Below are positions 8,578-42,129 of a stretch of DNA of 64,000 nucleotides, piece by piece; the first letter of the stretch is position 1; every line of letters starts with the position of its first letter. Source of the stretch: Dehalococcoidia bacterium (GTDB lineage: Bacteria; Chloroflexota; Dehalococcoidia; GIF9; AB-539-J10); NCBI GenBank assembly GCA_034431195.1, contig DAOUDP010000017.1, positions 195,051-259,050 on the forward strand, given 5' to 3'. Below the pieces are notes generated by a model that saw only the letters and a program-made list of their open reading frames with translations, did not search any database and was not told the DNA's origin. Position numbers and translations under genes: made by a program.

Positions 8578-8601
8578 ACACCTAGCCCTGTATCTCCAAA
8601 C

Positions 8602-9219: not shown

Positions 9220-9409
9220 TTCGACTGCGGCAATTCCACAACTATACAGCTAGATATACTTGGAGCATCCAGATATATTGCATCCTAACCGAGCTTCTTT
9301 GTCAAGTGGATACAACGTTGATTTGGTCTTACGAAATTCATTCTTTGTTCTAACTTCAAGCCTCATTGCACAATATCGCCGGGTAACACTGTTGTATAAT
9401 ATCTGTGAT

Positions 9410-10495
9410 ATGCCTGGCTCAGCGCGAAGGACCGGGATTGCCAATCTACCGCTGCATTATGGCAAGGTGCCTCCGTGGCTGTTTGGACGGATGTCTCAGC
9501 TTGCTCGGGAGATTGCCATTGTCATCGTTGATGAGTTTAGTGTTGAAGAGATGCTTCGCCGCCTTTCCGACCCTTTCTGGTTTCAAGCCTTTGGCTGTGT
9601 TCTAGGCTATGACTGGCATTCCAGCGGTGTTACCACAACCGTCTGCGGTGCCCTGAAAGAAGGGATGAGAGGATTGGAAAAAGAACTCGGCTTGTTCGTT
9701 GCCGGCGGCAAAGGCAGGACTTCTCGAAAGACTCCTGCTGAAATAGAAAACTCTGGGCATCTGCTAAAGGTAAATCCATCACCTCTGGTTTATGCCAGCC
9801 GAATGTCAGCTAAAGTGGATAATTCAGCCCTTCAGGATGGTTATCAGCTCTATCACCACACTTTCTTCTTCACCAAAGGCGGCTCCTGGGCAGTTATTCA
9901 GCAGGGCATGAATGAAATCAACCGCTATGCTCGGCGATACCACTGGCTGGGGGAGAAAGTTACCGATTTTGTTTGCGAGCCTGAGTCTGCTATCTGCTCT
10001 CAGGGTAGAGGTGAGGCGCTGAATCTGGTGGCTTCAGAAAGCACAAAGGCAAGGAATGTCATCGCTCAGGTTGCCACTGAGGAGAAACCAGAAAAAATTG
10101 TGATTCAGTTGAGTAAATTGAAAACGTTAAACCTGCCCCGGCGACCTTACATCACGCTGGAGGACATCCACCCTGACAGACTGAGCAAGATTTTCACCAT
10201 TGCCTACGAGCATCAGCCGCAAGATTTCGAATCACTGCTCGGGCTTGAAGGTGTAGGACCAAAGACGCTTCGCGCCCTCAGCCTTATCTCGGAGCTGGTG
10301 TACAATACACCAGTCAGTCTGCGTGACCCGGCAAGTTATAGCTTTGCCCACGGCGGTAAGGATGGTCATCCCTATCCTGTGGATAGAAAAACTTACGATA
10401 GCAGCATCCAGTTTCTGGCTCGAGCTCTGGACAAAGCCAGAATCGGGGACAAAGAGAAGCTTGAAGCCTTGCGTCGTCTGAAGGCATGGCAGTGA
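9410..10495 (+). CDS. DUF763-like protein with C-terminal helix-hairpin-helix motif; probable start at ATG 9410 rather than listed 9260
   Basis: RTGIANLPLHYGKVPPWLF N-terminus resembles archaeal/bacterial DUF763 proteins; LEGVGPKTLRALSL HhH motif; TATAAT at 9395-9400 lies 9 nt upstream of ATG 9410. Confidence 0.55.
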   Translation: MPGSARRTGIANLPLHYGKVPPWLFGRMSQLAREIAIVIVDEFSVEEMLRRLSDPFWFQAFGCVLGYDWHSSGVTTTVCGALKEGMRGLEKELGLFVAGGKGRTSRKTPAEIENSGHLLKVNPSPLVYASRMSAKVDNSALQDGYQLYHHTFFFTKGGSWAVIQQGMNEINRYARRYHWLGEKVTDFVCEPESAICSQGRGEALNLVASESTKARNVIAQVATEEKPEKIVIQLSKLKTLNLPRRPYITLEDIHPDRLSKIFTIAYEHQPQDFESLLGLEGVGPKTLRALSLISELVYNTPVSLRDPASYSFAHGGKDGHPYPVDRKTYDSSIQFLARALDKARIGDKEKLEALRRLKAWQ

Positions 10496-10537: not shown

Positions 10538-11878
10538 ATGACCGATTTCAATATTGCACCTTATGTGTCCCACATCGAGGCTAACCGTTCGGTTAAGGAC
10601 GCCGTGATGGAGAAGCTACAGGAGCGTCGCCCTCCCTATCGCGTCTCGGTAACTGACTTAACCAATTTGAAGCAAGCTTATTTCCGCAGAAAGCATCCCG
10701 AGATAGTCCCCCCTCTGGAGAAACAGCAGCTCATGTGGAAGGGGACCGGGTTTCACAAGCTTTTTGGCTTCGCTGTATCCAGCGAGGAATATCTGGAGCA
10801 ATTTGTGGAGACTGAAGGTGTGGTGGGTAAAATTGACATCTACGAAAATGTTCCCGTGGAGGTTAAAACGACTTCAGCATTGGCGAAGGGAAAAAGCTTA
10901 CTCCAGCAAAGACCGACTTACATTGAGCAAGTAGGCATGTATTGTGCTATGGTCAATGTTGGGGATGGAAAGATTGTCATTTACGAACGGCAGGGTGCAG
11001 AGGAATCGGGTGTGGTTCCTCTTACCGCCTATCATGTCACCTTTCCCAGCTTGGAAGCAGTTCGGGAAGAGATGCGTCGCAGGCGAGACTTATTGATTCA
11101 GGCGCTCATCTCCAACGACCCCAGCAACTTGCCTGTATGTGACTGGTTTGGCAGAGGATGCGACTATTCTGCAGTGTGCGACTGCGGCACCAGCTCGGTG
11201 CCCCCATCACACAAAATCGCTGAGTTAGCGGAGCAGGTTCAAATTGATGTGGCTACCCGCCAGCAACTGCTGGATAAACTTGGCAAGCCAAAGCCATCGC
11301 AGCTATTTCGCACTACCGACCTCGTCTTTCCCCGCAAGGCATATTTCGAGCGTCGCAAATCCTTGGAGACCATTTCAGAGGAGGAGGCAGCTGAGGAAAA
11401 AGGAGAATCCCTCCGCTCTATGGAGGAGGCGGGCTTTGTGGGCGCCCTCAAAGGGCTCATCCAGTTTGGTTCTCCCGGGGAAGTGGAAAATATTCCGATT
11501 CAGCATGCTTCGCTCAGCGACCTGGTTCGGCTCCGCCAGGGTTTGCCCACTATGGTGCGCATCCCTAAGTTCCAGTCACTTGTGGAACGGGGGCGGCTGC
11601 CTTCAGCATTTCCACACTATTTTTATCGCCTGGGCTTTGATTGTGCGTTAATAGACCATCCTAAAGGCAGACTATTTCTTTACTATGCTAATATCAGGGA
11701 TGAGAATGCCAAGATGATGGTCTATGATGTTTCCTTCAGAAACCTGGGTGCTATAAAGGCTGAGGCGATACGCCGCATAGAGCTTCTGGAAAAGGCGACT
11801 TCAGTAGCCCAGCTTCCGAGATGTCCTTCGTGGATGTGCCGCTATTGTTCCTACAGAGACGAATGCGGCGAGATTTAG
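10538..11878 (+). CDS. RecB/Cas4-like PD-(D/E)XK nuclease with two homologous domains, each ending in a 4-Cys cluster
   Basis: Domain 1 has GKIDIY (D), EVK (ExK), QVGMY (QxxxY) and C-x5-C-x5-C-x-C; domain 2 aligns with domain 1 but lacks D/ExK and ends C-x4-C-x2-C-x5-C. Confidence 0.6.
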   Translation: MTDFNIAPYVSHIEANRSVKDAVMEKLQERRPPYRVSVTDLTNLKQAYFRRKHPEIVPPLEKQQLMWKGTGFHKLFGFAVSSEEYLEQFVETEGVVGKIDIYENVPVEVKTTSALAKGKSLLQQRPTYIEQVGMYCAMVNVGDGKIVIYERQGAEESGVVPLTAYHVTFPSLEAVREEMRRRRDLLIQALISNDPSNLPVCDWFGRGCDYSAVCDCGTSSVPPSHKIAELAEQVQIDVATRQQLLDKLGKPKPSQLFRTTDLVFPRKAYFERRKSLETISEEEAAEEKGESLRSMEEAGFVGALKGLIQFGSPGEVENIPIQHASLSDLVRLRQGLPTMVRIPKFQSLVERGRLPSAFPHYFYRLGFDCALIDHPKGRLFLYYANIRDENAKMMVYDVSFRNLGAIKAEAIRRIELLEKATSVAQLPRCPSWMCRYCSYRDECGEI

Positions 11879-11988
11879 CAAAGCTGCAGCAAAGCATGGA
11901 GCCTTTTAGATATAATAAGGCTGACAAAGGATGCAGGGAATAATAAGCTCGCATATATCGAAGTTATCTACCACGCCGCTGTTGTCGG

Positions 11989-22230: not shown

Positions 22231-23781
22231 TTACAGAGGGATATTGCTATGTTTTTTAGGGGGATTAGCAACTTTTTTATTCTTGAGCATTTCCAGGGCT
22301 TTGATGACCTTTGGGCGTGTTTCTCGGGGGTCGATGACATCATCAATATAGCCTCTGGCTGCAGCTATATATGGACTGGCAAACTTATCGCGGTACTCCT
22401 GAATCAGTCTTTCCCTTGTTTCCTCGGGTTTTTCTGATTTAGCTATCTCGGCACGGTAAACGATGTTGGTTGCTCCTTCGGGGCCCATCACAGCGATTTC
22501 CGCCGTTGGCCAGGCGTAACAAATATCTCCCCGCAGCCCTTTGCTGCTCATGGCTACATAGGCTCCACCGTATGCCTTGCGGGTAATTATGCTTATCTTG
22601 GGCACAGTTGCCTCAGCATAGGCGAAGAGCAACTTAGCTCCGTGCCTGATGATACCTCGGAATTCCTGGTCAGTTCCAGGCATATATCCCGGCACATCAA
22701 CGAAGGTAACCAGGGGGATGTTGAAGCAATCGCAAAAGCGGACGAATCTGGATGCCTTATCCGAGGCGTCAATATCGAGTACGCCGGCCAAATGAAGGGG
22801 CTGCTGAGCTAGAATGCCTGCACTCTGTCCGCCCATCCGGGCAAAGCCCACGATGAAGCTGCGAGCAAATCTGTGGTGAACTTCGAGAAAGTCACCGTTG
22901 TCCACCACTTTGGTTATGATGTGTTTCATATCATAAGGCTTGGCTGGGCTATCAGGCACCATGTGAAGTAATTCTTCATCTGTGCGATTAGGGTCATCAC
23001 CGGTGTCTTCAAAGGGAGGGGGGTGTTGATAGCCTTGGGGGAGAAAGCTCAACAATTTACGCACCAGTTCAAAACATTCCTGTTCGGTATCAATGGCGAA
23101 ATGAGCATTTCCACTTTTGGTGGCATTTACCATAGCGCCGCCCAGTTCCTCCAGGCTGATTTCCTCTCCAGTTACCGTTTTGACCACCTCAGGTCCAGTG
23201 ATATAGCTCTGACCTATTCCCCTGACCATAAACACAAAATCGGTTATGGCTGGTGAGTACACAGCGCCTCCTGCGGTAGGTCCAACTATCACCGAAATCT
23301 GGGGGATAGTGCCTGAGTATATAGTGTTACGGGTGAAGATTTCGCCGTAGGCTTTAAGACTATCAGCCCCTTCCTGGATGCGTGCTCCTCCTGAGTCGAG
23401 TATGCCCACGAAGGGCGCGCCAGTTGTGGCGGCTAAGTCCATTACCTGGCAGATTTTGTTGGAGGCTACTTCTGATAATGAGCCGCCGAGAACGGTGAAA
23501 TCCTGGGAAAAGGCGAAGATAAGACGTCCAGCAACCTTTCCATAACCGGTGATGACTGAATCGCCGGGGAACTTCTGCTCTGCCATGCCAAAGTCAGTGC
23601 AGCGGTGGGTCACAAAAGGGTCTATTTCCTCGAAGCTGCCAGGGTCGAAAAGGAGGTCTAATCGTTCCCTGGCGGTCAACTTCCCCTTGCTATGTTGCGC
23701 TTCAATGCGCTTCGCTCCCCCACCTTGCCTTGCCTTCTCTCTGAGCTCGTTTAATTGCGCTAACTTTTGTTCGATATCCAT
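22231..23781 (-). CDS. acyl-CoA carboxylase carboxyltransferase beta subunit (propionyl-CoA carboxylase beta / methylmalonyl-CoA carboxyltransferase 12S family)
   Basis: 516 aa; GKLTARERLDLLFDPGSF, GGAR, GPTAGGAVYSPA, AYGGAY motifs. Confidence 0.87.
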   Translation of the reverse strand: MDIEQKLAQLNELREKARQGGGAKRIEAQHSKGKLTARERLDLLFDPGSFEEIDPFVTHRCTDFGMAEQKFPGDSVITGYGKVAGRLIFAFSQDFTVLGGSLSEVASNKICQVMDLAATTGAPFVGILDSGGARIQEGADSLKAYGEIFTRNTIYSGTIPQISVIVGPTAGGAVYSPAITDFVFMVRGIGQSYITGPEVVKTVTGEEISLEELGGAMVNATKSGNAHFAIDTEQECFELVRKLLSFLPQGYQHPPPFEDTGDDPNRTDEELLHMVPDSPAKPYDMKHIITKVVDNGDFLEVHHRFARSFIVGFARMGGQSAGILAQQPLHLAGVLDIDASDKASRFVRFCDCFNIPLVTFVDVPGYMPGTDQEFRGIIRHGAKLLFAYAEATVPKISIITRKAYGGAYVAMSSKGLRGDICYAWPTAEIAVMGPEGATNIVYRAEIAKSEKPEETRERLIQEYRDKFASPYIAAARGYIDDVIDPRETRPKVIKALEMLKNKKVANPPKKHSNIPL

Positions 23782-27503: not shown

Positions 27504-29177
27504 TCAGGATGTGCTACCTTTTTGCTTTTTCTCTTCCTCCTCTCTGAGAACCTTACGAAGGACCTTCCCTATGATTGACTTAGGAAGCGCATCCCTGAAC
27601 TCTACAAGCTTTGGGGTTTTGTATGCCGCTAATTTCTGTTTGCAGAAGTCCATAATCTCGTCTTCCGTGGCTGTCTCACCCGGTTTTAGAACGACATAGG
27701 CCTTGATTGTCTCCCCTCTGTATTCGTGAGGTATGCCTACAGCGACCGCATCCATAACCTTGGGGTGCTGATAGAGCACCTCATCGATCTCTCTGGGATA
27801 GATGTTGAATCCGCCCGCAATGATCATGTCCTTCTTGCGGTCTACTATGAACATATAACCTTCCTCGTCCTCCGTGGCGATATCTCCGGTATAGAGCCAT
27901 CCATCTCTGAGCTGATTCGCTGTTTCCTCGGGGTTGTTCCAGTATTCCTTCATGATCAGGGGTCCCTTCATTATGATCTCACCAGGCTCTCCCTGCGGCA
28001 CATCTTCCACTCCTTTGTCTACATCCACCAAACGCACATCATTATCAGGGAATGGGACCCCGATGCTGCCGACCTTCTTGAGACCCAGTATTGGACTCGA
28101 GGTTCCCAGCGAGGTAGACTCACTCAGCCCGTATCCCTCGCTGAAGAAGATCCCCATGTCGCGAACCTGCTGGATAAGCTCCACAGGCATAGGCGCTGCT
28201 CCCGAGTTCAACAAACCCAGTTTCTTTGCCAGGTTTAGCTCTGTGGCCTTGGGGTGGTTGATGAGGACGGTGATCAGTGTGGGTACAGTGGGGAAAAAGG
28301 TGATTTCTTCGAAATTGGCCAGGAGCCCCATCAGTTCATCGAGATCAAACCGAGGAACCAGTATCTGGGTAGCACAATTGGCCATGGCCCAGTTCATTGC
28401 TACAATGTTTCCATACACATGGAAATAGGGTATCACAGCCAGCACGGAACGTCTCTCCGGAGGAATAAGAGGTGCAGTGGCACTGCCCCACAGGGAGCAC
28501 TGGAAGGTGGCAGCTACTATGTTGGCGTGGGTGAGCACCGCCCCCTTGGGAATCCCGGTAGTTCCTCCAGTAAACTGAATAAGGGCAGGATCGTCCTGGG
28601 CTATCTCGACTCGTGGAACTCTCGTGTCAGAAGAGTTATCCATGAGTGTTGAAAAATGGTGCCAACCCTCCTCCAACTCCAGGTCTTTAGGTGTGCTCAC
28701 CCCCATCCCCGTTATGTAATCGGTTACTTTAGTGACCACTATCCGGGGAATGTCCACCTCTTGAGCAACGGTTCGAACTGCAGGAAGGACAATATCAAAG
28801 GTAAACAGGGTTGTCATTCCAGTGGTTTTGATCATGGGTTTGAGTTCATCAGCCGTGTACATGGCGTTTAGATTCACCACGATAGCCCCCAGGGATAGAG
28901 TAGCCAGGTAAGCAATGACATACTGGGGGCAGTTAGGGAGATGAAGCCCTACCCTTTCTCCTTTCTGTACCCCGATGGCACCAAGCGCATTGGCCATGCG
29001 CAACGCCTGGTGGCGCAACTCCCAGAAGGTCATCTCAGTACCGTAAAAATTCAGAGCTGGTTTGTCTGGATGTGTACCAGATGAGATCTGAAGGATATCC
29101 TGAGCAGGCACCCGGGGATAGCGGATTGTAGTAGGAACATTGTAGTCATAGTGACGATGCCAGGGTTTTGTTTCCAT
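27504..29177 (-). CDS. AMP-dependent acyl-CoA synthetase/ligase (FadD-like)
   Basis: 557 aa; TGGTTGIPKGAVLTH AMP-binding motif, YGLSE, GWLYTGD, PKSIIGKVLRK. Confidence 0.88.
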   Translation of the reverse strand: METKPWHRHYDYNVPTTIRYPRVPAQDILQISSGTHPDKPALNFYGTEMTFWELRHQALRMANALGAIGVQKGERVGLHLPNCPQYVIAYLATLSLGAIVVNLNAMYTADELKPMIKTTGMTTLFTFDIVLPAVRTVAQEVDIPRIVVTKVTDYITGMGVSTPKDLELEEGWHHFSTLMDNSSDTRVPRVEIAQDDPALIQFTGGTTGIPKGAVLTHANIVAATFQCSLWGSATAPLIPPERRSVLAVIPYFHVYGNIVAMNWAMANCATQILVPRFDLDELMGLLANFEEITFFPTVPTLITVLINHPKATELNLAKKLGLLNSGAAPMPVELIQQVRDMGIFFSEGYGLSESTSLGTSSPILGLKKVGSIGVPFPDNDVRLVDVDKGVEDVPQGEPGEIIMKGPLIMKEYWNNPEETANQLRDGWLYTGDIATEDEEGYMFIVDRKKDMIIAGGFNIYPREIDEVLYQHPKVMDAVAVGIPHEYRGETIKAYVVLKPGETATEDEIMDFCKQKLAAYKTPKLVEFRDALPKSIIGKVLRKVLREEEEKKQKGSTS

Positions 29178-29482
29178 GGTTCCCCCCTCCTAATATTTAT
29201 TTGAACCTAGAAAAACCAAGACTAGACTAACTAAATAAAAATACGCCTATTGAACCCTATTGTTCCTCCCTCGCTCATGGGTAACGGTAACAAATAATCG
29301 ATCACAACGCAATTAAACTTTATATATAAGTATATTTAGCATCCATTAATGTTAAGCAAAAAGGTAAAGCGAGCTTTACTAGCGAAGCCTTTGACTAGTG
29401 ATGATTTCGTACTTGCCTACCCCGATGGCGCGTTAAGAGCAGTTGAAACAGAAAATATTGGCAAAGAGGCCTGAATCAAATA

Positions 29483-29510
29483 TCGGGGTGAGAGGATTTG
29501 AACCTCCGAC
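29483..29510 (-). other. tRNA 3'-end-like remnant (T-arm plus acceptor-like segment) on the minus strand
   Basis: Minus strand reads cggaGGttcaaatCCtctcaccccga (GGAGG-TTCAAAT-CCTCT T-arm); no complementary 5' acceptor strand or full cloverleaf could be built from flanking sequence. Confidence 0.2.
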
Positions 29511-29711
29511 TAAATGTTCGCCAATGCTTCCTCGGCCCTCGTCACCTGCCCGTCGGCTCCGCATTCGAAGAAAAGCGAAGTTTTTCCCACTTCAAGGAGA
29601 AATTTTATCGCCGCTTGCCGAAGTTTGGTATTAAGAATAGGTGCTCCCTATCTGCACACCCGTGACAAGTCCGTTAAGACACCCAGCGCAATCAACCCTA
29701 TTGCCTTCGGT

Positions 29712-30944
29712 TCAAGAAACTCGCTTGGGGCGCAGCCCCGTTTCCTTTATTGCTAAACACAGTCTCACAGTTACAAGGTTCAATACTCCGAGCAACAGGA
29801 ATCCGGGCCAAAACAGATGGCTAACGTCTATGACCACCCCCATGACGACGGGCAGGATAAATGCGCCAACACGGTTTAGCACGAAAATCAGCCCGATGGC
29901 AGAGCCCGTATGAAGGGGACCGATACCCTCCATTTCCAACACTATGGTTCTTAACAGGGGAATGGCGACTCCTACACCCACAGCAATCAAAATCAGCACA
30001 GCAATCAAGGGTACACCCATAAAAAAGGCTACCAGGGACATACCTACGCTGCTTAGCAGTAAAAAAGGCCACACAAAGGGCTTCCTGACACCGAGCCTGT
30101 CCGAGAAAGACGGCCCCACGACATTAAAGACACCGCTACTCACCAGGGTGAGTCCAAGAAGAAGCCCAGCCTTTGCAGCAGTCATCCCCTTTTCAACCAG
30201 CATGGTCGGGAGAAAGCCCTGGAAAGCAAGAAAGCCACCGACCAAGCAGAATTCCATTAAACATACAAACCAGAGATCCCTAACCCTGACGACCCTCTTC
30301 AAGCCCTCCCAGGTTCCCGGTTGACGTGCCGCACGTTCAGCCGTAATTTCCTCGACCGGTTGCTCTCTAGCCCCTGTAATCCACATGATGAAAAGCACCA
30401 CAGCAATAGCCCCGGTTAACCACATCGTTGGTCTCCAGCCACCAAGGAGCGGAGATAGCACCGAGGCACCCGTCATATTCCCAAGAACCAGACCCACACC
30501 AACTGATATGCTAAGTATTCCATTAGCCCGTCCTAGCTCCGTTCTACCGAACCACATGCCAATCCCCTTTGTTAGATTAGGCACGATGAAAGCCAGAGAT
30601 ACACCGAAAAGGAACATAGCCACCGTCAATCCCTGGAAGCCTGGCATAAAGCCGCGCAGAGCACAGAATACGGCTGAAAAAATAAGCGCACCCGCTATTA
30701 CTCTTTTCACTCCAAAGCGATCGGCCATAGCGCCGCCTACAAGCGAGAATAGCATCATCCCTAGAAACCATGAGCCCCAGATGATTCCTACCTGGGTATG
30801 TGTCAAGCTTAATTCAGTAGCAATCTCAGGCAGCAGAGGAGGCACCACACCTATGTTTAAGCCGTTAAGAAAGCAATCTATCAAGCAAAAATAGACAAGC
30901 ATATGTCGCCTGTATGCCCATTTCTGCTCTACCATCCTACGCAC
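29712..30944 (-). CDS. MFS transporter
   Basis: 410 aa, ~12 TM segments, MFS loop 2-3 motif (GAMADRFGVKR). Confidence 0.85.
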   Translation of the reverse strand: MRRMVEQKWAYRRHMLVYFCLIDCFLNGLNIGVVPPLLPEIATELSLTHTQVGIIWGSWFLGMMLFSLVGGAMADRFGVKRVIAGALIFSAVFCALRGFMPGFQGLTVAMFLFGVSLAFIVPNLTKGIGMWFGRTELGRANGILSISVGVGLVLGNMTGASVLSPLLGGWRPTMWLTGAIAVVLFIMWITGAREQPVEEITAERAARQPGTWEGLKRVVRVRDLWFVCLMEFCLVGGFLAFQGFLPTMLVEKGMTAAKAGLLLGLTLVSSGVFNVVGPSFSDRLGVRKPFVWPFLLLSSVGMSLVAFFMGVPLIAVLILIAVGVGVAIPLLRTIVLEMEGIGPLHTGSAIGLIFVLNRVGAFILPVVMGVVIDVSHLFWPGFLLLGVLNLVTVRLCLAIKETGLRPKRVS

Positions 30945-31133
30945 CTTAATTTCGCAAGATAGCCGCTACTCCTCTTTGAGACTCCTTTATGGTAACGAAC
31001 GGCTATTTTGTTCAGGCTTGGGAAGCTTTATCGCCGCTTGCTGAAGTATGCCCTTAAGAGTATTTACCCAGCTTTGCCTCTTCGCTAGCAAGAAGAATCT
31101 CGGCAGAGCTAGCCTGGTAAAATGGACTTTCGT

Positions 31134-31886
31134 TCAAGCGGATTTTATCCTTTTCTGTATCCTGAGCCACGAGTCTGTGATAAGGAAACTCTCCTCCATA
31201 TTGTGAATCATTCTTACAAACTTGCTCATAGGTACTGAGAATGTGAGTACATTGTTGGGAACAAAAGGACGCGCTGAAGGGTCGAACATTCCGATGACTC
31301 CTCTGGGGCGGGCAGAATCTCTTTCAAGATACGGATACTGGACAATTGTGGAACAGCCCGAGCCAAAGGGGGTGAATACTGCATTTTGCTCAGCTTCATC
31401 GAAACGCGCCAGAGTAAAGAGCCCCGAGAGAACATCGGGCTCCGCAAAGAAGATAACAACTTCAGGGTCGTCTGACTCCTCAAGCTTGTCCCATCTTTTA
31501 AATACTATGAAGCGTCCGGGTGCTTTGAACGTAGGCAAGCGTTTCATTATTTCCTTGACCAGTTCCGGAGATTTGCAATAGCGCTCACCGGTCAACTTGC
31601 CGGGAATTCCGTAGGAGAGGAAGTATTCAAAGTCTGGCATAATCCCTTCTGTAAAGCCAAGGTATCGTTTGCCCCCAGGACAGCCAACTGAGTCCACATC
31701 AAAACATGAGGAACTTCCCCTCCTCACATCTGATAATGCCCCAACCACACATCCTGGTACTGAGCCGGGCTCGACCAGCTTGGCATGTCCTTCTTCGTTG
31801 GTATAATAGAAAATAACCGGAAGTTCCGCACCGTCGAAATACTTTTTCCAGAGCCAACTGAATTTCTCTTTGATATGTTTGTTCAT
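31134..31886 (-). CDS. DUF169-family protein
   Basis: 250 aa; paralogous to 33447-34226; architecture resembles COG2043/DUF169 proteins. Confidence 0.55.
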   Translation of the reverse strand: MNKHIKEKFSWLWKKYFDGAELPVIFYYTNEEGHAKLVEPGSVPGCVVGALSDVRRGSSSCFDVDSVGCPGGKRYLGFTEGIMPDFEYFLSYGIPGKLTGERYCKSPELVKEIMKRLPTFKAPGRFIVFKRWDKLEESDDPEVVIFFAEPDVLSGLFTLARFDEAEQNAVFTPFGSGCSTIVQYPYLERDSARPRGVIGMFDPSARPFVPNNVLTFSVPMSKFVRMIHNMEESFLITDSWLRIQKRIKSA

Positions 31887-31893
31887 ATGGAAA

Positions 31894-33363
31894 CTAAGCA
31901 GTCACGTTTTCCCTTTTGTCGATGCCAGCTAAACTGCGAGCGAGCCTCTGCTTGAGGTCCATATCCGTCTCGCGCTCAATCATAATTTTCTGTGCCTGAG
32001 GCGAGCCCGCTCCATGTAGCGACTCTGTACGATAACTGGGAGCTATTTGGCCAAAAGTCATGGAGTGGATGAGCGTCAACATACGGATTCGGTGCTCTGT
32101 AGGTACATCAGGCACTCCCTTCAGGTATTTATCGACATATTTGCCCATCACAGGGTGCCTGAAGTCTTTTTCGGAGGGCAGTGTTACCAGAATACCGCCG
32201 GCTATGTCCTCGGCAAGCCTGCAAAGCTCGTAGGGAAACCTCGTCACATTGTGCTTACATACATTGGCTAAAAGAATGTTGGACTGGTAGTTGCCAGACA
32301 TAGTCTGCCACCCTTCGTAGGCGCAGGCTAATCCGCAGGCATGTATCGTTTCAGCGAGGTGAATCATCTCCCCGAGCTTCTCTCTGATGTGAGGGGCTCT
32401 GCGTGTCCCGTTGTAATCAGCCATTGAGGCCGCCGCCCCAATAAGCACATCGCCTATGCCCGGCTTGCAACCGCCGTAGCTCTGTCTATGATAAGCGGCG
32501 AATCTCTCCACCATCATAATGGCAAATTCGATCTCCCCGCACATGAAAACCCTATCCCACGGGACAAAGACGTTATCCAGGATAGTCAGTGTCTCCTGTC
32601 CACCGAAGCTGTAGTTGCCGACATCGATGTCACCATCCTCAAGCTTGCGCGTATCACAGGACTGTCTTCCATAGATGAGGTGTACGCCTTCAGCGTCCGT
32701 TGGTATAGCACAGCTTAGTGAATAGTCCTCATCGCCGTCCCGCATTCTCAGGGTTGGCATAATGAGCATTTCATGTGAATTCACGGTTCCCGTTTGACTT
32801 GCTTTTGCCCCCCTTATGATGATTCCATCACTCCTTCGCTCTACCACATGCACAAACATGTCTGGGTCAGTCTGCTTGCTTGGAGCCACCACCCGGTTGC
32901 CCTTGGCATCAGTCATGGCACCCTGGACACAGAGGTCATTCTGTTGAACATACTTCAGCCACTCTCTAAACCTGTGGTGATACTTGGTTCCGTGCTCCTG
33001 GTCAATTTCGTAGGTGGTACTAAAAACAGCATTGATCCCGTCAAGACCAACGCACCTCTGGAAACAACAGGCTGTCCTTTGTCCCAGCTCCCTCTGTAAT
33101 CTTACCTTACTGACCATATCACCGGTGCTCTTGAAGAGAGAGTTAAATCGGTTTACCTTCTTTTCTGTAAGCATCGAGCCCGTGGTTGCCAGTTCCTTGT
33201 TCTTGGGCTCGTGAGCAAGCTTGTAGGTCATCGCCACAGCGTTGATTGATGGTCTGATAATAGGATTATCAACCCAATTCTCCACCTTTTCACCAAGTAG
33301 ATAGAGGTCCAGTTTCAGCTTACGCAGACTCTCGATGTACTCTGCAGCGGTTTTCAATGGCAT
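31894..33363 (-). CDS. abfD: 4-hydroxybutyryl-CoA dehydratase / vinylacetyl-CoA delta-isomerase family flavoenzyme (AbfD-like)
   Basis: 489 aa; CCFQRCVGLD (Fe-S Cys pair), HxxxxxxC later in sequence, FGGQE; same length as AbfD; HpaB-like flavin monooxygenase is the alternative. Confidence 0.75.
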   Translation of the reverse strand: MPLKTAAEYIESLRKLKLDLYLLGEKVENWVDNPIIRPSINAVAMTYKLAHEPKNKELATTGSMLTEKKVNRFNSLFKSTGDMVSKVRLQRELGQRTACCFQRCVGLDGINAVFSTTYEIDQEHGTKYHHRFREWLKYVQQNDLCVQGAMTDAKGNRVVAPSKQTDPDMFVHVVERRSDGIIIRGAKASQTGTVNSHEMLIMPTLRMRDGDEDYSLSCAIPTDAEGVHLIYGRQSCDTRKLEDGDIDVGNYSFGGQETLTILDNVFVPWDRVFMCGEIEFAIMMVERFAAYHRQSYGGCKPGIGDVLIGAAASMADYNGTRRAPHIREKLGEMIHLAETIHACGLACAYEGWQTMSGNYQSNILLANVCKHNVTRFPYELCRLAEDIAGGILVTLPSEKDFRHPVMGKYVDKYLKGVPDVPTEHRIRMLTLIHSMTFGQIAPSYRTESLHGAGSPQAQKIMIERETDMDLKQRLARSLAGIDKRENVTA

Positions 33364-33446
33364 GATACATCATCTCCCTTCTCGTCTTTTTTGCTTGACT
33401 TCGGCTTCTCCTTAACAACATGGGAACAAATTCGATAAAAAGGCCC

Positions 33447-34226
33447 CTAGGGCTTTAAGTGTTTTTCAAGTTCTTCAAACTGCGGGATCTGCATGGGCTC
33501 AAATAACAGATAACTCTGAACAGGGTAGCGTGAGCCCGCCTTATGGGTTGCCTCAAGTCCTGCTATTAGGTCATCCACCTGAGATGCAGGTAGACTAAAC
33601 GCCATTTCGTGGTCCTGGGTAAGCCCGAGCACCCTTTCTCCTCTGCCGGGATGGATCAGATGGGCCTTATCATCTTTAAATGGCCATATCATCTCGCTGG
33701 TACAGGTAAACCCCAGGTTTGTCTCAGAGGTAACAACCCCACCCCTTTTATAGATATAGCCCTGGGCGAGTCTCATCATCTGCGCCGGATTGCCATATAT
33801 GACCACTATGTCTGGCTCAAGCCTTGTCCTTGAAAGGGGGGAGATATAGAGCCGTTCAAATCGCCCTGGCTCCATTATGGTCATTTTCTCAAGGGTTTTT
33901 ATAGCAGCTTCTTTTGTCTCAAAATAACCCATGCTCATAAGGAAATCTATTACTGCGTCCGGGGTTTCAGGCTCTCTCCAGCCAAAGCCCATGAGTGCCG
34001 GGATACAATTTATGTCATCTTTTGTTACCCCCATAGACCATCCCCATCTCCTGGCAATATTTGTTGCCTGGCATACGGCGGTCTTTATTCCCATGCTTGA
34101 AGGTGTCCCTGTCTTTTCCGGGAATGCATCTCCCTTTTTCAGGAAATTTACACCTAAAGGAAATGTATCCAGCCTTACATACCTATTCAATTGCTCTTCT
34201 TTCGCCTTCCATACATCTTGAGTCAT
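33447..34226 (-). CDS. DUF169-family protein (second paralog)
   Basis: 259 aa; similar layout to 31134-31886. Confidence 0.55.
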   Translation of the reverse strand: MTQDVWKAKEEQLNRYVRLDTFPLGVNFLKKGDAFPEKTGTPSSMGIKTAVCQATNIARRWGWSMGVTKDDINCIPALMGFGWREPETPDAVIDFLMSMGYFETKEAAIKTLEKMTIMEPGRFERLYISPLSRTRLEPDIVVIYGNPAQMMRLAQGYIYKRGGVVTSETNLGFTCTSEMIWPFKDDKAHLIHPGRGERVLGLTQDHEMAFSLPASQVDDLIAGLEATHKAGSRYPVQSYLLFEPMQIPQFEELEKHLKP

Positions 34227-34239
34227 AGCTACCTCCTTA

Positions 34240-34761
34240 TTATTTCTTCTCGTCTTTTTGGCGCTCCATCTCTTCCAGTATTAGCTCTGTAGCCAGCCTA
34301 GCAGCGGTACCAGCAACCTTTGAGCAATGAGCAAACATCTCAGCCTCAATGGCTTTTTCCAGCTCCGATGTGTCATATAGATTAAAAGTCCTGCCCATGA
34401 GGCGCTTCTGGATGTCATAGCATCTGCATGATCCATACTGTTCAACAAATCTGTCATGAAGCTTCTTGACCATCATATATGACCTCATGGGTTTTAACAT
34501 GTCGGAAAAGTCCTTCTTTTCCCTGCCAAAGAGGTAACTGATTGCCATTGCACCACCAACCAGGGCGCCGCACGAACCGTCCCCTGTTAAGCCCAATCCG
34601 TCTGCCAGCCCACTTGCACTTCGGAACACATCATCATTTTCAATATCCAAGGCATCGAAGATGCCAGCAATGGTCGTCTGGGCACACCCGGTGCACTTCA
34701 TCTCGTATTTGCGGGCAGACTCAAACGCCCTTTCTAATATAGCATCCCGCGAGTTTTTCAT
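34240..34761 (-). CDS. C_GCAxxG_C_C family protein
   Basis: CTGCAQTT near N-terminus, then GSCGAL and GSCRC cysteines in the spacing typical of this family. Confidence 0.65.
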   Translation of the reverse strand: MKNSRDAILERAFESARKYEMKCTGCAQTTIAGIFDALDIENDDVFRSASGLADGLGLTGDGSCGALVGGAMAISYLFGREKKDFSDMLKPMRSYMMVKKLHDRFVEQYGSCRCYDIQKRLMGRTFNLYDTSELEKAIEAEMFAHCSKVAGTAARLATELILEEMERQKDEKK

Positions 34762-34835
34762 AACTACCTCCTTATATCCCTCTTTTCTTCAAACCATCCT
34801 CAATTGATAAACATCCTTAATAGAATAAATATTCA

Positions 34836-35459
34836 CTATTTGCCCAGCTTTGCTTCCAGCTCCTTTTGCCGCAAAGCCATGGTCACATCGCCGCGAGTCC
34901 TCTCAATGACACCACGAATCGCATCCGTGGTCCGCCTCAAGCCATGAGTGATGATTTCGGTGAAATCCATAGTCATCAATATGCCATAAATATCATCCAT
35001 GGCACCGAGCAACTCTTCACAGCGAGAGAAATCCCCTCTCCTCATGCTATCCAGTAAGTAGCGCCTTAATTCACCCACCGCTTCGCCAAGTCCATTGAGA
35101 TATGCGGCATAATCAACGCCTATTGCCTCAGCTTTGGGGAGCTCTTTCCCAACGATCAAAGCGAAGGTGATGCTCCCTTCGGCGAATTCCTTTTTAGCAT
35201 CATGAACGAATCCTGAATGAAGCAAACCGGGATGGTCATTGAGGCTACCATTTATCTCCTGAACCAATTTGTAAGTTGAGTCAAGAATTTGCCTTGCCTT
35301 ATCCTGCTCCTGACGATGAACAGCCCTTATAGCATTGGCGCTATTGCGAATTATCTGGCGGCAGAGGCGCAAAGCCTTCTCCCTGGCTTCATCCTCAGCG
35401 GTGAAATAGGCGTGGATTTCTTCAGCGATAGCTTTCAGCTCATCCCCTAACCCTGGCAT
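34836..35459 (-). CDS. translin-family-like protein (tentative)
   Basis: 207 aa all-helical; segment YLNGLGEAVGELRRYLLDSMRRGDFSRCEELL resembles the translin/TRAX core (GL.D..GEL.R); 13-bp overlap with thiE. Confidence 0.4.
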   Translation of the reverse strand: MPGLGDELKAIAEEIHAYFTAEDEAREKALRLCRQIIRNSANAIRAVHRQEQDKARQILDSTYKLVQEINGSLNDHPGLLHSGFVHDAKKEFAEGSITFALIVGKELPKAEAIGVDYAAYLNGLGEAVGELRRYLLDSMRRGDFSRCEELLGAMDDIYGILMTMDFTEIITHGLRRTTDAIRGVIERTRGDVTMALRQKELEAKLGK

Positions 35460-36577
35460 TTTCTCTTTGCCTTCCTTATCTCACTAACCAACCCCTTGGT
35501 GGCTTTTTTGATATCTGGCTTGCTTAACACGGCACTAATCACAGCAACACAATCAGCACCAGCAGCAATTACCTCACCAACATTGCTTTGATCAATGCCA
35601 CCGATAGCCACCACTGGTGAGGATACTGCCTCCCTCACCTGCTTGAGAATATCCAGGCCGACGACAATAGCCCCTTCCTTGCTCTCCGTAGGGAACATCG
35701 AGCCCACAGAAATGTAATCCGCCCCTTCATCCCCCGCCTCAATTGCCCGTGATACCGTGGTAACCGAGCTACCAATTATCTTAGCCATCGGCAATTCTCT
35801 CCTGGCAACATGAACCGGCAGATCTCCGTAGCCAATATGGAGACCATCAGCATCGACTGCCAGTGCTAAATCCAAATAGTCATTGATGATGAATAAAATC
35901 CCTGCCTTCAGGCATAGCTCCTTAAGCCCCTCAGCAACGGGCAATAGTTCCACCATACTCCTTTGCTTATCACGAAGCTGGATAACCTTGGCCCCTCCCT
36001 GAATAACCTCTCGCGCTACCTCCAATTCATCCCTGCCACCCAGAACTTGCCTATCAACGATAACATAAAGGCCAGTCAACTCCTTCAGCTTATCCTGCCG
36101 CGTTAGTCTGGAAACCATCTTTTTTTCCACCGAATAAAGGCAGAACCTCACCTTCTCAAACCTGGTAGCATCCAGCTTGGAGCTCAGTTCATCCAGCTTG
36201 GCCAACTCCTCCAATACTCGCAGAGATTCCTCCACCCTGTTGGCATTGGCTTCGACCAGGCTGGCTAAATCAGGGTAGGACTGCTTGTTGAGATTGCTTC
36301 GCCTTCGGCTCGCAATGACAGAGGGAGGGCTCGCAACGACAGAGGGGCAGCTGTCAATGACATTTTCTCTGCCGACATCGTGTTCCGAGTCCCGTTCCTC
36401 AAGAAGAATTATGCCCAGAGACTCACCGACTTCAGCAAGACTGTGACGCGTGGTTCTTAACTGCTGGCTTAGTGTAGCGTCATTAAGAACGAAGCGGGCA
36501 ACATCTTCCAGAACACGCAGCCCCTCAGCAGAACGATTGAGGTTGGCATCAACTATACGAAGCAGTTGGTGAGGCAC
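35447..36577 (-). CDS. thiE: thiamine-phosphate synthase (ThiE) with ~160-aa N-terminal extension containing an in-frame repeat insertion
   Basis: C-terminal ~215 aa carries ThiE TIM-barrel motifs (LYVIVD, IQLRDK, GADYISVG, AIGGI); N-terminal extension has two helical repeats (DANLNRSAEGLRVLEDVARF / EANANRVEESLRVLEELAKL) split by repeat-encoded ENVIDSCPSVVASPPSVIASRRRSNLNK. Confidence 0.8.
   Translation of the reverse strand: MPHQLLRIVDANLNRSAEGLRVLEDVARFVLNDATLSQQLRTTRHSLAEVGESLGIILLEERDSEHDVGRENVIDSCPSVVASPPSVIASRRRSNLNKQSYPDLASLVEANANRVEESLRVLEELAKLDELSSKLDATRFEKVRFCLYSVEKKMVSRLTRQDKLKELTGLYVIVDRQVLGGRDELEVAREVIQGGAKVIQLRDKQRSMVELLPVAEGLKELCLKAGILFIINDYLDLALAVDADGLHIGYGDLPVHVARRELPMAKIIGSSVTTVSRAIEAGDEGADYISVGSMFPTESKEGAIVVGLDILKQVREAVSSPVVAIGGIDQSNVGEVIAAGADCVAVISAVLSKPDIKKATKGLVSEIRKAKRKCQG
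36291..36366. repeat. 76-bp composite repeat inserted in-frame inside thiE
   Basis: gagattgcttcgccttcggctcgcaatgacagagggagggctcgcaacgacagaggggcagctgtcaatgacatttt; same architecture as 14961-15035. Confidence 0.7.
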
Positions 36578-36923
36578 TTTGTAAATCCTTCAGAGGCTCA
36601 GGCATCACACCCTCTCTAGCTGCCTGTATTTCCTCTTTAAGCTGGGAAGGCATCTCTTCGCCCATCTCCTTAAATTTCTTCTCCGCCCAACGCCCGATGT
36701 TGCGTGGGTCTTTGTAATAATCATCGCTGAGATGCGCTGCTGGTTCGCCACTCTCCTCCCATACAGTTTGTAATGACTTATGGTAGGCGAAGCTTGATAC
36801 AGTACGGGATAAATTAGCGCTTCCGCAAAAGCGACAGGTGGCCGAAACAGGCTCCGAGATACTCCTCAGCAGAATACTCGTCTTTTCACGACAATCATGG
36901 CAGATAAACTCATAGATTGGCAC
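36549..36923 (-). CDS. FmdB-family zinc-ribbon protein with long charged C-terminal tail
   Basis: MPIYEFICHDC...CRFCG (CxxC-x16-CxxC) at N-terminus as in FmdB-family proteins. Confidence 0.65.
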   Translation of the reverse strand: MPIYEFICHDCREKTSILLRSISEPVSATCRFCGSANLSRTVSSFAYHKSLQTVWEESGEPAAHLSDDYYKDPRNIGRWAEKKFKEMGEEMPSQLKEEIQAAREGVMPEPLKDLQSASPTASYS

Positions 36924-36935
36924 CCTGCCTCCTTA

Positions 36936-37319
36936 CTAATCCCCTTCCGCCTCTGATGACTCGGATAGGCCCATCACCTCTTTCCTCTTTTGTTCAATCT
37001 GCTCAACAGGCCATTCCCCGCTCTCCATTCTCTCTGTCATTTCCTCATAATCTGGAGGAGGCTTCTCGCCTCCGGTCATTCTCTTATTCCACTCAGCTAA
37101 AGCTCTGGGGTCATTGCGCATCATCCCCTCAGTCAAGTTCCTGTCGGAAAGTATATCGTCATAAGCATCCTTGTAGGTTTTATGCATGGCGAAAGTGGAG
37201 AATGTCCGTTTGAGCTCACCCCCGCAGTGAGGGCAGGCAGGAGCATCAGGCGAAAAATTGTGCCGAAATAAGCTAACCTTGCGGTGGCAGGAATTACAAC
37301 GGTATTCGTAAACTGGCAT
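36936..37319 (-). CDS. FmdB-family zinc-ribbon protein, tandem paralog
   Basis: MPVYEYRCNSC...CPHCGG; same organisation and charged tail as 36549-36923. Confidence 0.65.
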   Translation of the reverse strand: MPVYEYRCNSCHRKVSLFRHNFSPDAPACPHCGGELKRTFSTFAMHKTYKDAYDDILSDRNLTEGMMRNDPRALAEWNKRMTGGEKPPPDYEEMTERMESGEWPVEQIEQKRKEVMGLSESSEAEGD

Positions 37320-37515: not shown

Positions 37516-37821
37516 GTGGGTTATGAAGACAAAACGCTCGAATGCGCTGATTGCGGCGCGACTTTCACCTTCACCGCTGAGGAACAGGAGTTCTTTGCCA
37601 CTAAAGGCTATGCTCATGAGCCCAAGCGTTGCCCAGCGTGCCGCAAAGCAAGGAAATCCCAGCGCTACGGAGGCGACTTCGGCTTTAGACGCCAGATGTT
37701 CCCTGCAGTGTGTGCCCAGTGTGGTAAAGACACAGAAGTGCCGTTCCAGCCCCGTGAAGGTAGACCGGTATATTGCAGCGAGTGCTACAACGAGCTTAAA
37801 GCAAATAAGCAACTTGACTAG
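37516..37821 (+). CDS. small zinc-ribbon protein, zf-trcl-like (two CxxC pairs and a third Cys cluster)
   Basis: DKTLECADCGATF...CPACRK and CAQCGKD...CSECYN; DxxLxC + CxxC signature of the probable zinc-ribbon family. Confidence 0.55.
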   Translation: MGYEDKTLECADCGATFTFTAEEQEFFATKGYAHEPKRCPACRKARKSQRYGGDFGFRRQMFPAVCAQCGKDTEVPFQPREGRPVYCSECYNELKANKQLD

Positions 37822-40782: not shown

Positions 40783-42129
40783 GTGGCTACCGGTGATTCT
40801 ATTTCTATGAGTGAACCATTTTCGGCAAAAGAGGCTTGGGCAAGAGCTTTAGGACAGCTTCAACTCCAAGTCAACAGGATAAACTATGATACCTGGCTTA
40901 GGGATAGTCAAGGTATCAATTGCGAAAACGACGTCTTCGTAGTTAGCGTTCCCAATACTTTCATCGCTGAGTATCTTACAAAACGCTTTCACTCATTGAT
41001 AAAGAAGACCATTGCCATTATCTTAGGAAAAGACTTGGAGGTCCAATTCGTGGTACAGCAGCCAACACTGGCCAGGGAGAAGTCATTGCAGCGCGACGGT
41101 GGAGTAAGCACCAAGATGAAAACCTACCGATTTAACCCCAAATACACTTTCGCCAGATTTGTGGTGGGTGATTGTAATCGCCTTGCCTATGCTGCAGCCA
41201 CAGAGGTAAGCCAGAAACCATCACTGGTCTACAATCCACTCATCATTCACGGAGATACTGGTCGCGGCAAGACTCACTTGTTACATGCTATCGGGCACAT
41301 GGCGATAGGAAGTGGACTGAACGTGGTTTACTCCTCCGCTGACCAATTCATCACTGAATTTGTGCTCGCAGTCAAGCAGAACGATGTAGACCATTTCCGA
41401 AGTAAATTCGCCCCGGTAAATGTGTTCCTTTTCGATGATTTCCAACTGCTAGATAATAAAAAGCAGACTCAACAGTTTTTCTTTCACACTTTCAACGAGC
41501 TTTATCATAATAACTGTCAAATCGTGATCGCTGCTGACTGCGCCCCCAAAGAGATGTCTTTAGTCGGCAACAGGCTAAGGTCACGCCTGCAATGTGGTCT
41601 TGTTACTCAAATTCAACCACTCGATTTTGGGACACGGTTAGCTATACTTCAAGCCAAGTCAACGGAGAAGAGACTCCCTATCATCGAAGAGACGCTGCAA
41701 TTTATCGCACAGAAGATACAGGATAACGTCTACCAGCTTGAAGGTGCCCTCACATACCTCGATGCCTATACCAAGTTAACCGGGCTTAGCTTAACTCCAC
41801 AAATAGTCACCAAATTATTAACAACTAATAAAAACAACGATGACTGTAAATTAATAGTCCAAACGGTAGCTGAATATTTTGACTGTTCCCTAGAGCAATT
41901 GCTAGGCAGAAAGAGGGATAGGGAGACTTCCCTAGCACGCCAAATCGCAGCGTATCTCCTGCGAGAGAAAGGAAATTACTCTTTCACCGAGATCAGCAAT
42001 ATATTGGGTAATAGGAATCATGCCACAATACTCCATGGATATAAGAAAATAGCTAACGATTTAGGGGTTAATTCCAAGCTGAAAAGGCAAATCAGTCAAA
42101 TTAAACGACAAATTGACAATTCGTATTAA
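40783..42129 (+). CDS. dnaA: chromosomal replication initiator DnaA
   Basis: Walker A GDTGRGKTHLLHAIG, Walker B LFDDFQ, sensor motifs, C-terminal DNA-binding domain (LARQIAAYLLRE...HATILHGYKKI); start possibly at ATG 40807. Confidence 0.92.
   Translation: MATGDSISMSEPFSAKEAWARALGQLQLQVNRINYDTWLRDSQGINCENDVFVVSVPNTFIAEYLTKRFHSLIKKTIAIILGKDLEVQFVVQQPTLAREKSLQRDGGVSTKMKTYRFNPKYTFARFVVGDCNRLAYAAATEVSQKPSLVYNPLIIHGDTGRGKTHLLHAIGHMAIGSGLNVVYSSADQFITEFVLAVKQNDVDHFRSKFAPVNVFLFDDFQLLDNKKQTQQFFFHTFNELYHNNCQIVIAADCAPKEMSLVGNRLRSRLQCGLVTQIQPLDFGTRLAILQAKSTEKRLPIIEETLQFIAQKIQDNVYQLEGALTYLDAYTKLTGLSLTPQIVTKLLTTNKNNDDCKLIVQTVAEYFDCSLEQLLGRKRDRETSLARQIAAYLLREKGNYSFTEISNILGNRNHATILHGYKKIANDLGVNSKLKRQISQIKRQIDNSY

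Follow-up and report, generated by a model that had tools for sequence, protein, structure and literature searches.

A demanding piece of radical chemistry is catalyzed by 4-hydroxybutyryl-coenzyme A (CoA) dehydratase (AbfD), a dehydratase of anaerobic fermentations and of two CO2-fixation cycles of archaea that also interests biotechnology as a means of producing 4-hydroxybutyrate. For the archaeal enzyme, a role in CO2 fixation and oxygen tolerance have been described; the same work names as essential, in Clostridium aminobutyricum numbering, the [4Fe-4S] ligands Cys99, Cys103, His292, and Cys299 and the catalytic residues Thr190, Glu257, Tyr296, and Glu455 (bioRxiv 10.1101/2020.02.05.935528). 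Here we describe an AbfD-type gene in a 64,000-nucleotide stretch of DNA from a Dehalococcoidia bacterium (GenBank assembly GCA_034431195.1, contig DAOUDP010000017.1, positions 195,051 to 259,050; hereafter the window), where it is flanked on both sides by genes for DUF169 proteins (DUF169A and DUF169B) and accompanied by genes for a C_GCAxxG_C_C family protein (CGCA), an MFS transporter, and an acyl-CoA ligase. Comparison with related genomes indicates that this locus is probably a lineage-specific mosaic of separable modules in a Dehalococcoidia chromosome and not a conserved pathway operon.

The initial annotation had described six co-directional genes on the minus strand, and the open reading frame (ORF) list and Pfam searches confirmed these genes and their domains, as listed here in order of position together with the Translin/TRAX-like gene that precedes the CGCA-DUF169A pair.

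27504-29177, minus strand: AMP-forming acyl-CoA ligase, 557 aa (Pfam AMP-binding and AMP-binding_C, above gathering score)
29712-30944, minus strand: MFS_1 transporter, 410 aa (Pfam MFS_1, 163 bits)
31134-31886, minus strand: DUF169B, a divergent DUF169 protein, 250 aa (Pfam DUF169, 113.3 bits)
31894-33363, minus strand: AbfD-type 4-hydroxybutyryl-CoA dehydratase/vinylacetyl-CoA isomerase, predicted, 489 aa (HpaB_N and HpaB, 313 and 233 bits)
33447-34226, minus strand: DUF169A, a canonical DUF169 protein, 259 aa (Pfam DUF169, 172.7 bits)
34240-34761, minus strand: CGCA, a C_GCAxxG_C_C family protein, 173 aa (PF09719, 82.3 bits)
34836-35459, minus strand: Translin/TRAX-like protein, upstream neighbor of CGCA-DUF169A (Translin, 26.9 bits; NF011160, E = 2e-82)

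In the order of transcription, the intergenic gaps are 13 nt (CGCA-DUF169A), 83 nt (DUF169A-AbfD), 7 nt (AbfD-DUF169B), 189 nt (DUF169B-MFS), and 534 nt (MFS-ligase). A co-directional run of six genes is nothing unusual by itself. All genes are under purifying selection, with ratios of nonsynonymous to synonymous substitution rates (dN/dS) of 0.06-0.37, and the values for AbfD against relatives are 0.06-0.13.

The closest described enzyme to the 489-aa protein is AbfD of Clostridium aminobutyricum (Protein Data Bank (PDB) entry 1U8V), to which it aligned with 60% identity over 488 columns (E = 5e-203, 678 bits), followed by the Nitrosopumilus maritimus enzyme (6VJR; E = 5e-180, 602 bits). The HpaB two-component flavin monooxygenases (2YYG, 4OO2) have the Pfam domains HpaB_N and HpaB in common with it, but HpaB-type enzymes scored at most 154 bits (E of at least 4e-44), and the NCBIfam HpaB models stayed far under threshold, one at 169 bits (cutoff 480) and another at 86 bits (cutoff 885). 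As in the clostridial enzyme, whose domain architecture it has, all four [4Fe-4S] ligands (C99, C103, H292, and C299 in C. aminobutyricum numbering; C100, C104, H292, and C299 in the window protein) and, by alignment mapping, the catalytic residues T190, E257, Y296, and E455 are kept; the iron-sulfur (Fe-S) ligands set the protein apart from the HpaB monooxygenases. R90, Q101, M149, K300, and A460, which we take to have roles in AbfD as well, are likewise kept. The N. maritimus enzyme is a full-length match from the same family, but it has HRRSY-VCK where the window protein and 1U8V both have HRQSYGGCK; moreover, it serves the 3-hydroxypropionate/4-hydroxybutyrate cycle, whereas the window shows no carbon-fixation-cycle context. 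The scores and the kept ligands thus argue against the HpaB-type grouping that the initial annotation had named as a possible refutation, and its assignment of an AbfD-like flavo-Fe-S dehydratase was borne out: as judged from its sequence, the 489-aa protein is a bona fide AbfD-type enzyme, with a predicted [4Fe-4S] cluster and flavin adenine dinucleotide, and does not belong with the HpaB monooxygenases. Its most likely activity is the reversible conversion of 4-hydroxybutyryl-CoA to crotonyl-CoA, together with the isomerization of vinylacetyl-CoA.

Gene order was compared across 56 AbfD loci from GTDB species, which were scanned by phmmer and profile hidden Markov models. The closest of these loci among GTDB species representatives came from Dehalococcoidia metagenome-assembled genomes (MAGs; AbfD 94-98% identical to that of the window); identity was 75-90% in other Dehalococcoidia, 56-62% in Clostridia and Desulfobacterota, and ∼52% in Promethearchaeota. 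The complete order ThiE, Translin, CGCA, DUF169A, AbfD, DUF169B, MFS was found at only two of the 56 loci, L008 (98%) and L009 (96%). A DUF169 gene was present at 3 of the 56 and a CGCA gene of the window type at 2, all with an AbfD at least 95% identical to that of the window. At L045 (AbfD 95%), only AbfD-DUF169B is present, with a methyltransferase gene upstream and genes for FKBP and a different MFS protein downstream. At L010 (94%), AbfD is flanked by genes for an old yellow enzyme-type oxidoreductase and an OpuAC binding protein, and at L015 (90%), it has an acyl-CoA dehydrogenase gene on either side; AbfD genes at or below 84% identity have other neighbors throughout. In other Dehalococcoidia, the neighbors include genes for enoyl-CoA hydratase (ECH), acyl-CoA dehydrogenases, ADP-forming CoA ligase, FMN reductase, and tRNA synthetase, among others. 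The ECH, acyl-CoA dehydrogenase, and CoA ligase genes beside AbfD fit a link with β-oxidation-type metabolism. Synteny of AbfD, DUF169, and C_GCAxxG_C_C is not kept beyond near-identical relatives, so these genes do not form a conserved operon, and the DUF169 and C_GCAxxG_C_C proteins are not general partners of AbfD. A lack of DUF169 synteny in relatives, the second outcome that the initial annotation had named as a possible refutation, is largely what was seen.

The clostridial abfD-abfT-4-hydroxybutyrate dehydrogenase cluster offers a second point of comparison. Clostridial AbfD loci in our sample have the order NifU-like gene, AbfD, 103-aa ORF, AcetylCoA_hydro-type CoA transferase, and iron-dependent alcohol dehydrogenase (Fe-ADH). 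None of these partners is present at the window locus, which instead has DUF169, C_GCAxxG_C_C, MFS, and AMP-forming ligase genes; domains of 4-hydroxybutyrate CoA-transferase and Fe-dependent 4-hydroxybutyrate dehydrogenase were not found in the window ORFs that were scanned.

Several further features of AbfD loci in the sample were recorded. A 97-aa NifU-like gene is directly upstream of AbfD at 13 loci, mostly of the Clostridia type, and a 103-aa ORF with no Pfam match is directly downstream of AbfD at 15 loci, before the CoA transferase gene; loci of this kind include L022, L024, L026, L031-L037, L039, L041, L042, and L047. The ORF of 103 aa may code for a protein that is associated with AbfD and has escaped annotation. 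Genes for BcrAD/BadFG-type ATPases, which are activators of 2-hydroxyacyl-CoA dehydratases, are beside AbfD at six loci (L050, at 8071-9737, L033, L040, L047, L049, and L062), and one of these, from a Dehalococcoidia MAG, has two such genes directly upstream of an AbfD that shares 97% identity with that of the window; AbfD is not known to need an activator of this type. At two loci from Dehalococcoidia MAGs (L011, 3964-5382; L018, 2010-3461), a gene for an ADP-forming acyl-CoA synthetase (CoA_binding plus Succ_CoA_lig) directly adjoins AbfD. The thaumarchaeal 4-hydroxybutyrate cycle employs an ADP-forming 4-hydroxybutyryl-CoA synthetase, and an enzyme of this kind may be a better candidate for the activating step than the AMP-forming ligase of the window.

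DUF169B begins 7 nt beyond the stop codon of AbfD and lacks a Shine-Dalgarno sequence; this junction, TAGTTTCCATATG, is identical at 11 of 11 AbfD-linked DUF169B loci; in its extended form, ...GCTTAGTTTCCATATGAAC, it is the same in both types of genomic context. A Shine-Dalgarno sequence (GGAG or GAGG) precedes 29 of 30 solitary DUF169B orthologs. Homologs of DUF169B are numerous (n = 7512, the top 120 at least 72% identical). From 80 metagenome loci that were retrieved, those with usable upstream sequence showed AbfD directly upstream of DUF169B at 10 of 10 loci at 88% identity or above, compared with 0 of 65 at 67-85% identity (Fisher p = 1e-12). The neighborhood of solitary orthologs varies, as at L065, which is part of a complete Dehalococcoidales chromosome, and at L067; no recurrent partner was found for them, the commonest neighbor occurring at 9 of 72 loci; ECH genes near the solitary copies at L065, L067, and L084 were considered as partners and judged incidental. 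The identical junction points to a single ancestral event that set AbfD before a resident DUF169B gene, and the fixed lack of a Shine-Dalgarno sequence there raises the possibility that translation of DUF169B is coupled to that of AbfD. The linked DUF169B genes are under purifying selection (dN/dS ∼0.19-0.23). At L008, the closest GTDB relative, 480 bp are missing from the interior of DUF169B (11467-11898), with the break at a short sequence that is repeated (CCAGGATGTGTGGTTG...); the loss, either real or an assembly artifact, leaves a remnant of ∼90 codons beside intact AbfD and MFS genes.

The transporter is confined to one type of context. Downstream of DUF169B, it was found in type-I relatives only (L008, L009, L064/L075, L070-L073, L078, and L080), so that the association with AbfD expected from the initial annotation holds within one group of close relatives and does not extend more widely. 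The best NCBIfam matches of the MFS protein were to organic-anion and aromatic-acid symporter subfamilies; these matches were weak and all far below cutoffs, and the protein could import a carboxylate. Two copies of a direct repeat (family D1, 80% identity) bracket the MFS gene:

29599-29639, strand not assigned: 41-nt direct repeat, right copy, in the MFS-ligase spacer (repeat search)
31022-31062, strand not assigned: 41-nt direct repeat, left copy (repeat search)

The 15-nt core of the repeat, GCAAGCGGCGATAAA, occurs twice in the window compared with 0.09 expected. In relatives (L008, L009, L070-L072, and L078), an exact core is present once, upstream of MFS, and the second copy was detected in the window only. 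Because the right flank of MFS varies among relatives, being an ECH gene in L008 and L070 and an opposite-strand GGDEF-HD gene in L009, L064, and L073, the 41-nt repeat may mark a site of recombination. The DUF169B-MFS spacer varies as well. At L009 (11176-11639), it has an insertion of ∼650 bp with two small ORFs. A HicA toxin is encoded by the second (PF07927, E = 1.4e-7), and the first resembles its antitoxin, with no significant Pfam match. The spacer is similarly enlarged at L070, L071, and L078.

The ligase matched best, in NCBIfam and the PDB, generic fatty-acyl, coumarate, and feruloyl-CoA ligases, all below family cutoffs, and its gene adjoins MFS in the window only, being absent from that position in every relative examined. 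The enoyl-CoA hydratase (crotonase) gene at 4548-5363 is real; it lies 23 kb away, unlinked, among unrelated genes (Sir2, RNA cyclase, and glycosyltransferase).

The second pair of genes, CGCA and DUF169A, recurs independently of AbfD. DUF169A and DUF169B are 19% identical and are thus ancient members of one family and not recent paralogs; the position of DUF169 genes on both sides of AbfD, and their common family, were correctly recognized in the initial annotation. Relatives of DUF169A at 62-84% identity always have a CGCA gene, ∼80% identical to that of the window, 10-13 nt upstream, and none has AbfD downstream. The pair without AbfD was found in five contexts: L005 and L150-153 have a Translin fragment followed by CGCA, DUF169A, and DUF3187, and at L150-L152 the Translin/TRAX-like gene is kept upstream; L006 has the pair among integrase and transposase genes; L154 has a ligase paralog and Amidohydro_2 upstream and a class IV aminotransferase downstream; and L155/156 have an I42 inhibitor and methyltransferases nearby. 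The ligase homolog near the pair at L154 was considered as evidence of linkage and rejected, being 45% identical over the conserved C-terminal part, a paralog-level match. More distant homologs of DUF169A (41-45% identical; Desulfarculus baarsii and others) are solitary, with neither CGCA nor AbfD nearby. Further, in P0307, a representative of one of the DUF169 clusters, the DUF169 and C_GCAxxG_C_C domains are naturally fused in one protein, the DUF169 part being 40% identical to DUF169A (E = 4e-67). The recurrence without AbfD and the fusion together indicate that CGCA-DUF169A is an independent two-gene module of which AbfD is not the conserved partner. Indeed, the Translin-like gene is a more persistent neighbor of the pair than is AbfD. 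An occasional adjacency of TRAX and DUF169 genes has been described in archaeal SepRS operons (PMC8762117); the window and L150-L152 similarly have a Translin/TRAX-family gene beside a DUF169-containing pair, but SepRS, endonuclease V, and TYW1 of the archaeal operons are all missing here, and the host is bacterial. The initiation regions of CGCA and DUF169A are near-identical, ATAAGGAGGTAG(T/C)TATGA at 34223-34240 and 34758-34775 (direct repeat D5), which would fit strong expression of the two genes at matched levels.

The window proteins pass the curated cutoffs of their two families and keep the family cysteines. Both DUF169 proteins exceed the gathering score of 27 bits of PF02596 (COG2043). 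DUF169A has exactly three cysteines, C52, C74, and C175, which are 93-97% conserved across 143 diverse members, and carries both the PGxGxR motif and the C-terminal RYP motif; DUF169B retains the three family cysteines but lacks both motifs. CGCA scored 51.2 bits against TIGR01909 (cutoff 47.4) and 82.3 bits against PF09719 (cutoff 27). Its signature residues C23, G25-C26-A27, C64, C112/C114, and C146 all occur and show little or no variation, C26, C64, C112, C114, and C146 being invariant in 30 homologs of 62-92% identity, and the position of the last G of GCAxxG is T30 in the window protein and a residue other than G in 30 of 30 aligned sequences. Homologs of CGCA numbered at least 791. Those numbered P0200-P0270 are 62-76% identical between Dehalococcoidia and proteins labeled Thermodesulfobacteriota, Bathyarchaeia, and Freyarchaeota, an unusually high conservation across domains that suggests that CGCA is under strong constraint and/or has been horizontally transferred. 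The AlphaFold2 model of DUF169A has an α/β fold (mean predicted local distance difference test, pLDDT, 91), and that of CGCA is all-α (pLDDT 89); neither model had a match in the PDB, and a PDB sequence search with the two proteins gave nothing significant. In the literature searched, DUF169 and C_GCAxxG_C_C appeared in incidental mentions only, no functional study of either family was found, and their pairing as adjacent genes or their fusion was undescribed. Given their conserved cysteines (five in CGCA and three in DUF169A), the two proteins most likely form one cysteine-rich complex, and the most economical interpretation is that this heteromer probably binds a metal or an Fe-S cluster or carries out thiol redox chemistry. 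Elsewhere in the DUF169 family, for which a profile search of 1.84 billion representatives returned 2435 clusters, further fusions (P0280, P0377, P0309, and P0419) join the domain to URO-D-type methyltransferase-like, MaoC dehydratase, and dephospho-CoA kinase (CoaE) domains, and the homologs at L003 and L004 have genes for corrinoid methyltransferases in their vicinity (Pterin_bind, B12-binding, and URO-D).

Put together, these comparisons favor two modules brought side by side in a recent patchwork, a shallow, lineage-specific variant. One would be the CGCA-DUF169A pair with the Translin-like gene at its head and a function independent of AbfD; the other would be AbfD with DUF169B. One ancestral event would have set AbfD before a DUF169B gene that was already in place and as a rule stands alone, and would have deprived that gene of its ribosome-binding site, and DUF169B translation would now probably be coupled to AbfD. 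The organic-anion MFS transporter would then have joined the second module in one sublineage, with the acyl-CoA ligase a neighbor specific to the window, and AbfD would likely feed a C4 hydroxy-acid thioester into crotonyl-CoA and β-oxidation-type metabolism. A number of observations weigh against such a mosaic. Five of the six genes stand close together in one orientation, and selection is purifying on all of them, so co-expression, and hence some functional coupling within the clade, is possible. AbfD and DUF169B stay together across two genomic contexts, as a functional unit would. The recurrent NifU-like gene at clostridial loci indicates that AbfD genes attract small Fe-S-related partners, and the AbfD sample was limited to 56 loci, retrieved via six peptide patterns. 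A partnership of the DUF169 and C_GCAxxG_C_C proteins with AbfD is possible, with its support confined to one shallow clade.

Of the other explanations, the one that follows the initial annotation most closely is a single dedicated route, in which a 4-hydroxy acid enters the cell through the MFS protein, is activated by the ligase, and is then dehydrated by AbfD to crotonyl-CoA, with DUF169A, DUF169B, and CGCA as obligate accessory or redox partners. The close, co-directional spacing of the genes, an apparently genuine AbfD, and an MFS protein that resembles organic-anion symporters and stays with AbfD in about nine close relatives all speak for such a route, as do the ECH gene that follows MFS in L008 and L070 and the ADP-forming CoA ligases that adjoin AbfD in L011 and L018. 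We nevertheless regard it as unlikely as a whole, because the ligase is missing from the locus in all relatives examined and is separated from MFS by 534 nt, DUF169 is absent from 53 and CGCA from 54 of the 56 AbfD loci, CGCA-DUF169A has five AbfD-less contexts, DUF169B is solitary at 65 of 65 loci at or below 85% identity and internally deleted beside an intact AbfD in L008, and the crotonase is 23 kb distant. What stands of the uptake and activation route is thus the identity of AbfD and the company of the MFS gene in close relatives; the ligase, the crotonase, and DUF169 synteny do not. The direction of the route is a separate matter. AbfD could instead run from crotonyl-CoA to 4-hydroxybutyryl-CoA, or act mainly as a vinylacetyl-CoA isomerase, in fermentative or assimilatory C4 metabolism without catabolism of imported 4-hydroxybutyrate. 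The reaction is reversible, both directions are used in nature, and the archaeal 6VJR is a strong match at 602 bits (bioRxiv 10.1101/2020.02.05.935528); the Fe-ADH and AbfT-type CoA transferase that clostridial catabolic loci have were not found in the window ORFs scanned, and a propionyl-CoA-carboxylase-type carboxyltransferase is encoded at 22231-23781. However, the clostridial enzyme, a catabolic one, matches the window AbfD better (678 bits) than 6VJR does, the neighbors of AbfD in related Dehalococcoidia are of the β-oxidation type, and with 64 kb of the genome visible, the absence of partner genes is uninformative. We rate this explanation as very improbable.

An alternative that starts from the cysteines is that DUF169 and C_GCAxxG_C_C proteins maintain labile cofactors, by Fe-S insertion, repair, or redox poise, and were recruited to the oxygen-sensitive center of AbfD, with DUF169B as a translationally coupled, dedicated AbfD subunit. 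It would account for the three family-wide cysteines of DUF169 and the five invariant ones of CGCA, for the pairing and fusion of the two families, for the fusion or proximity of DUF169 to cofactor-dependent enzymes (URO-D-type corrinoid methyltransferases and MaoC dehydratase), and for the NifU-like genes beside AbfD at 13 mostly Clostridia-type loci, and the AbfD-DUF169B junction with no Shine-Dalgarno sequence is consistent with translational coupling. But neither AlphaFold2 model matches a solved Fe-S or redox protein, most AbfD genes, even those 90-94% identical, do without such a neighbor, DUF169B is internally deleted in L008, and the associations of DUF169 are heterogeneous, and we hold the recruitment to be doubtful. 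Equally doubtful is its more general form, namely that DUF169 and C_GCAxxG_C_C constitute a previously unrecognized two-component metal, Fe-S, or thiol redox module that services labile radical or cofactor enzymes and was here recruited to AbfD, with DUF169B as its translationally coupled subunit and CGCA-DUF169A as a factor for its maturation, repair, or redox poise. If this were true, AbfD would be the first case of a radical dehydratase served by a helper of its own of such a kind. Overall, the mosaic of separable modules is the explanation that we prefer.

The surroundings of the locus are of the housekeeping type. Toward higher coordinates, CGCA is followed by genes for ThiD2-ThiE, the Translin-like protein, two Zn-ribbon proteins, and a radical-SAM protein, and toward lower coordinates, the ligase is followed by NYN, a PTPS gene, folK, and folP. 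The AbfD locus lies ∼6-13 kb from dnaA.

40783-42129: dnaA
42902-44827: gyrB

With the minimum of the cumulative GC skew at ∼40-42 kb in the window, these two genes indicate that the window probably spans the chromosomal replication origin. Between 26500 and 39000, there was no excess of promoter-like sites (14 compared with 14.1 expected), nor of terminator-like sites (18 compared with 11.5 +/- 3.9 expected); a scan of the region with Rfam gave zero family matches. A terminator between DUF169A and AbfD was considered and rejected, the hairpin at 33440-33456 reaching only -5.6 kcal/mol (z = 0.32, not significant). The Translin/TRAX-like protein is labeled a "haloacid dehalogenase superfamily protein" by NCBIfam, through PRK14562 models of which none reached its cutoff. 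It shares a 13-nt gene overlap with thiamine-phosphate synthase (35447-36577), which has an N-terminal ThiD2 domain; the pairing of these two genes is odd, yet it is kept in L008, L009, and L064. Between ThiE and the radical-SAM gene stand two tandem FmdB-type Zn-ribbon (Zn_ribbon_8) paralogs (36549-36923 and 36936-37319) and an opposite-strand treble-clef zinc-finger gene (37516-37821), an arrangement that is also kept in relatives.

AbfD in these genomes behaves as an often-relocated gene, which cautions against reading its neighborhood as a pathway operon. A genuine AbfD would add a C4 hydroxy-acid/crotonyl-CoA node to the predicted metabolism of sediment Dehalococcoidia. The enzyme is itself a further member of a known family, and the new lead, which is also the most reusable result, is the pairing of one DUF169 subfamily with one C_GCAxxG_C_C subfamily, including their fusion, a modest but concrete point from which to approach the function of two large uncharacterized families.

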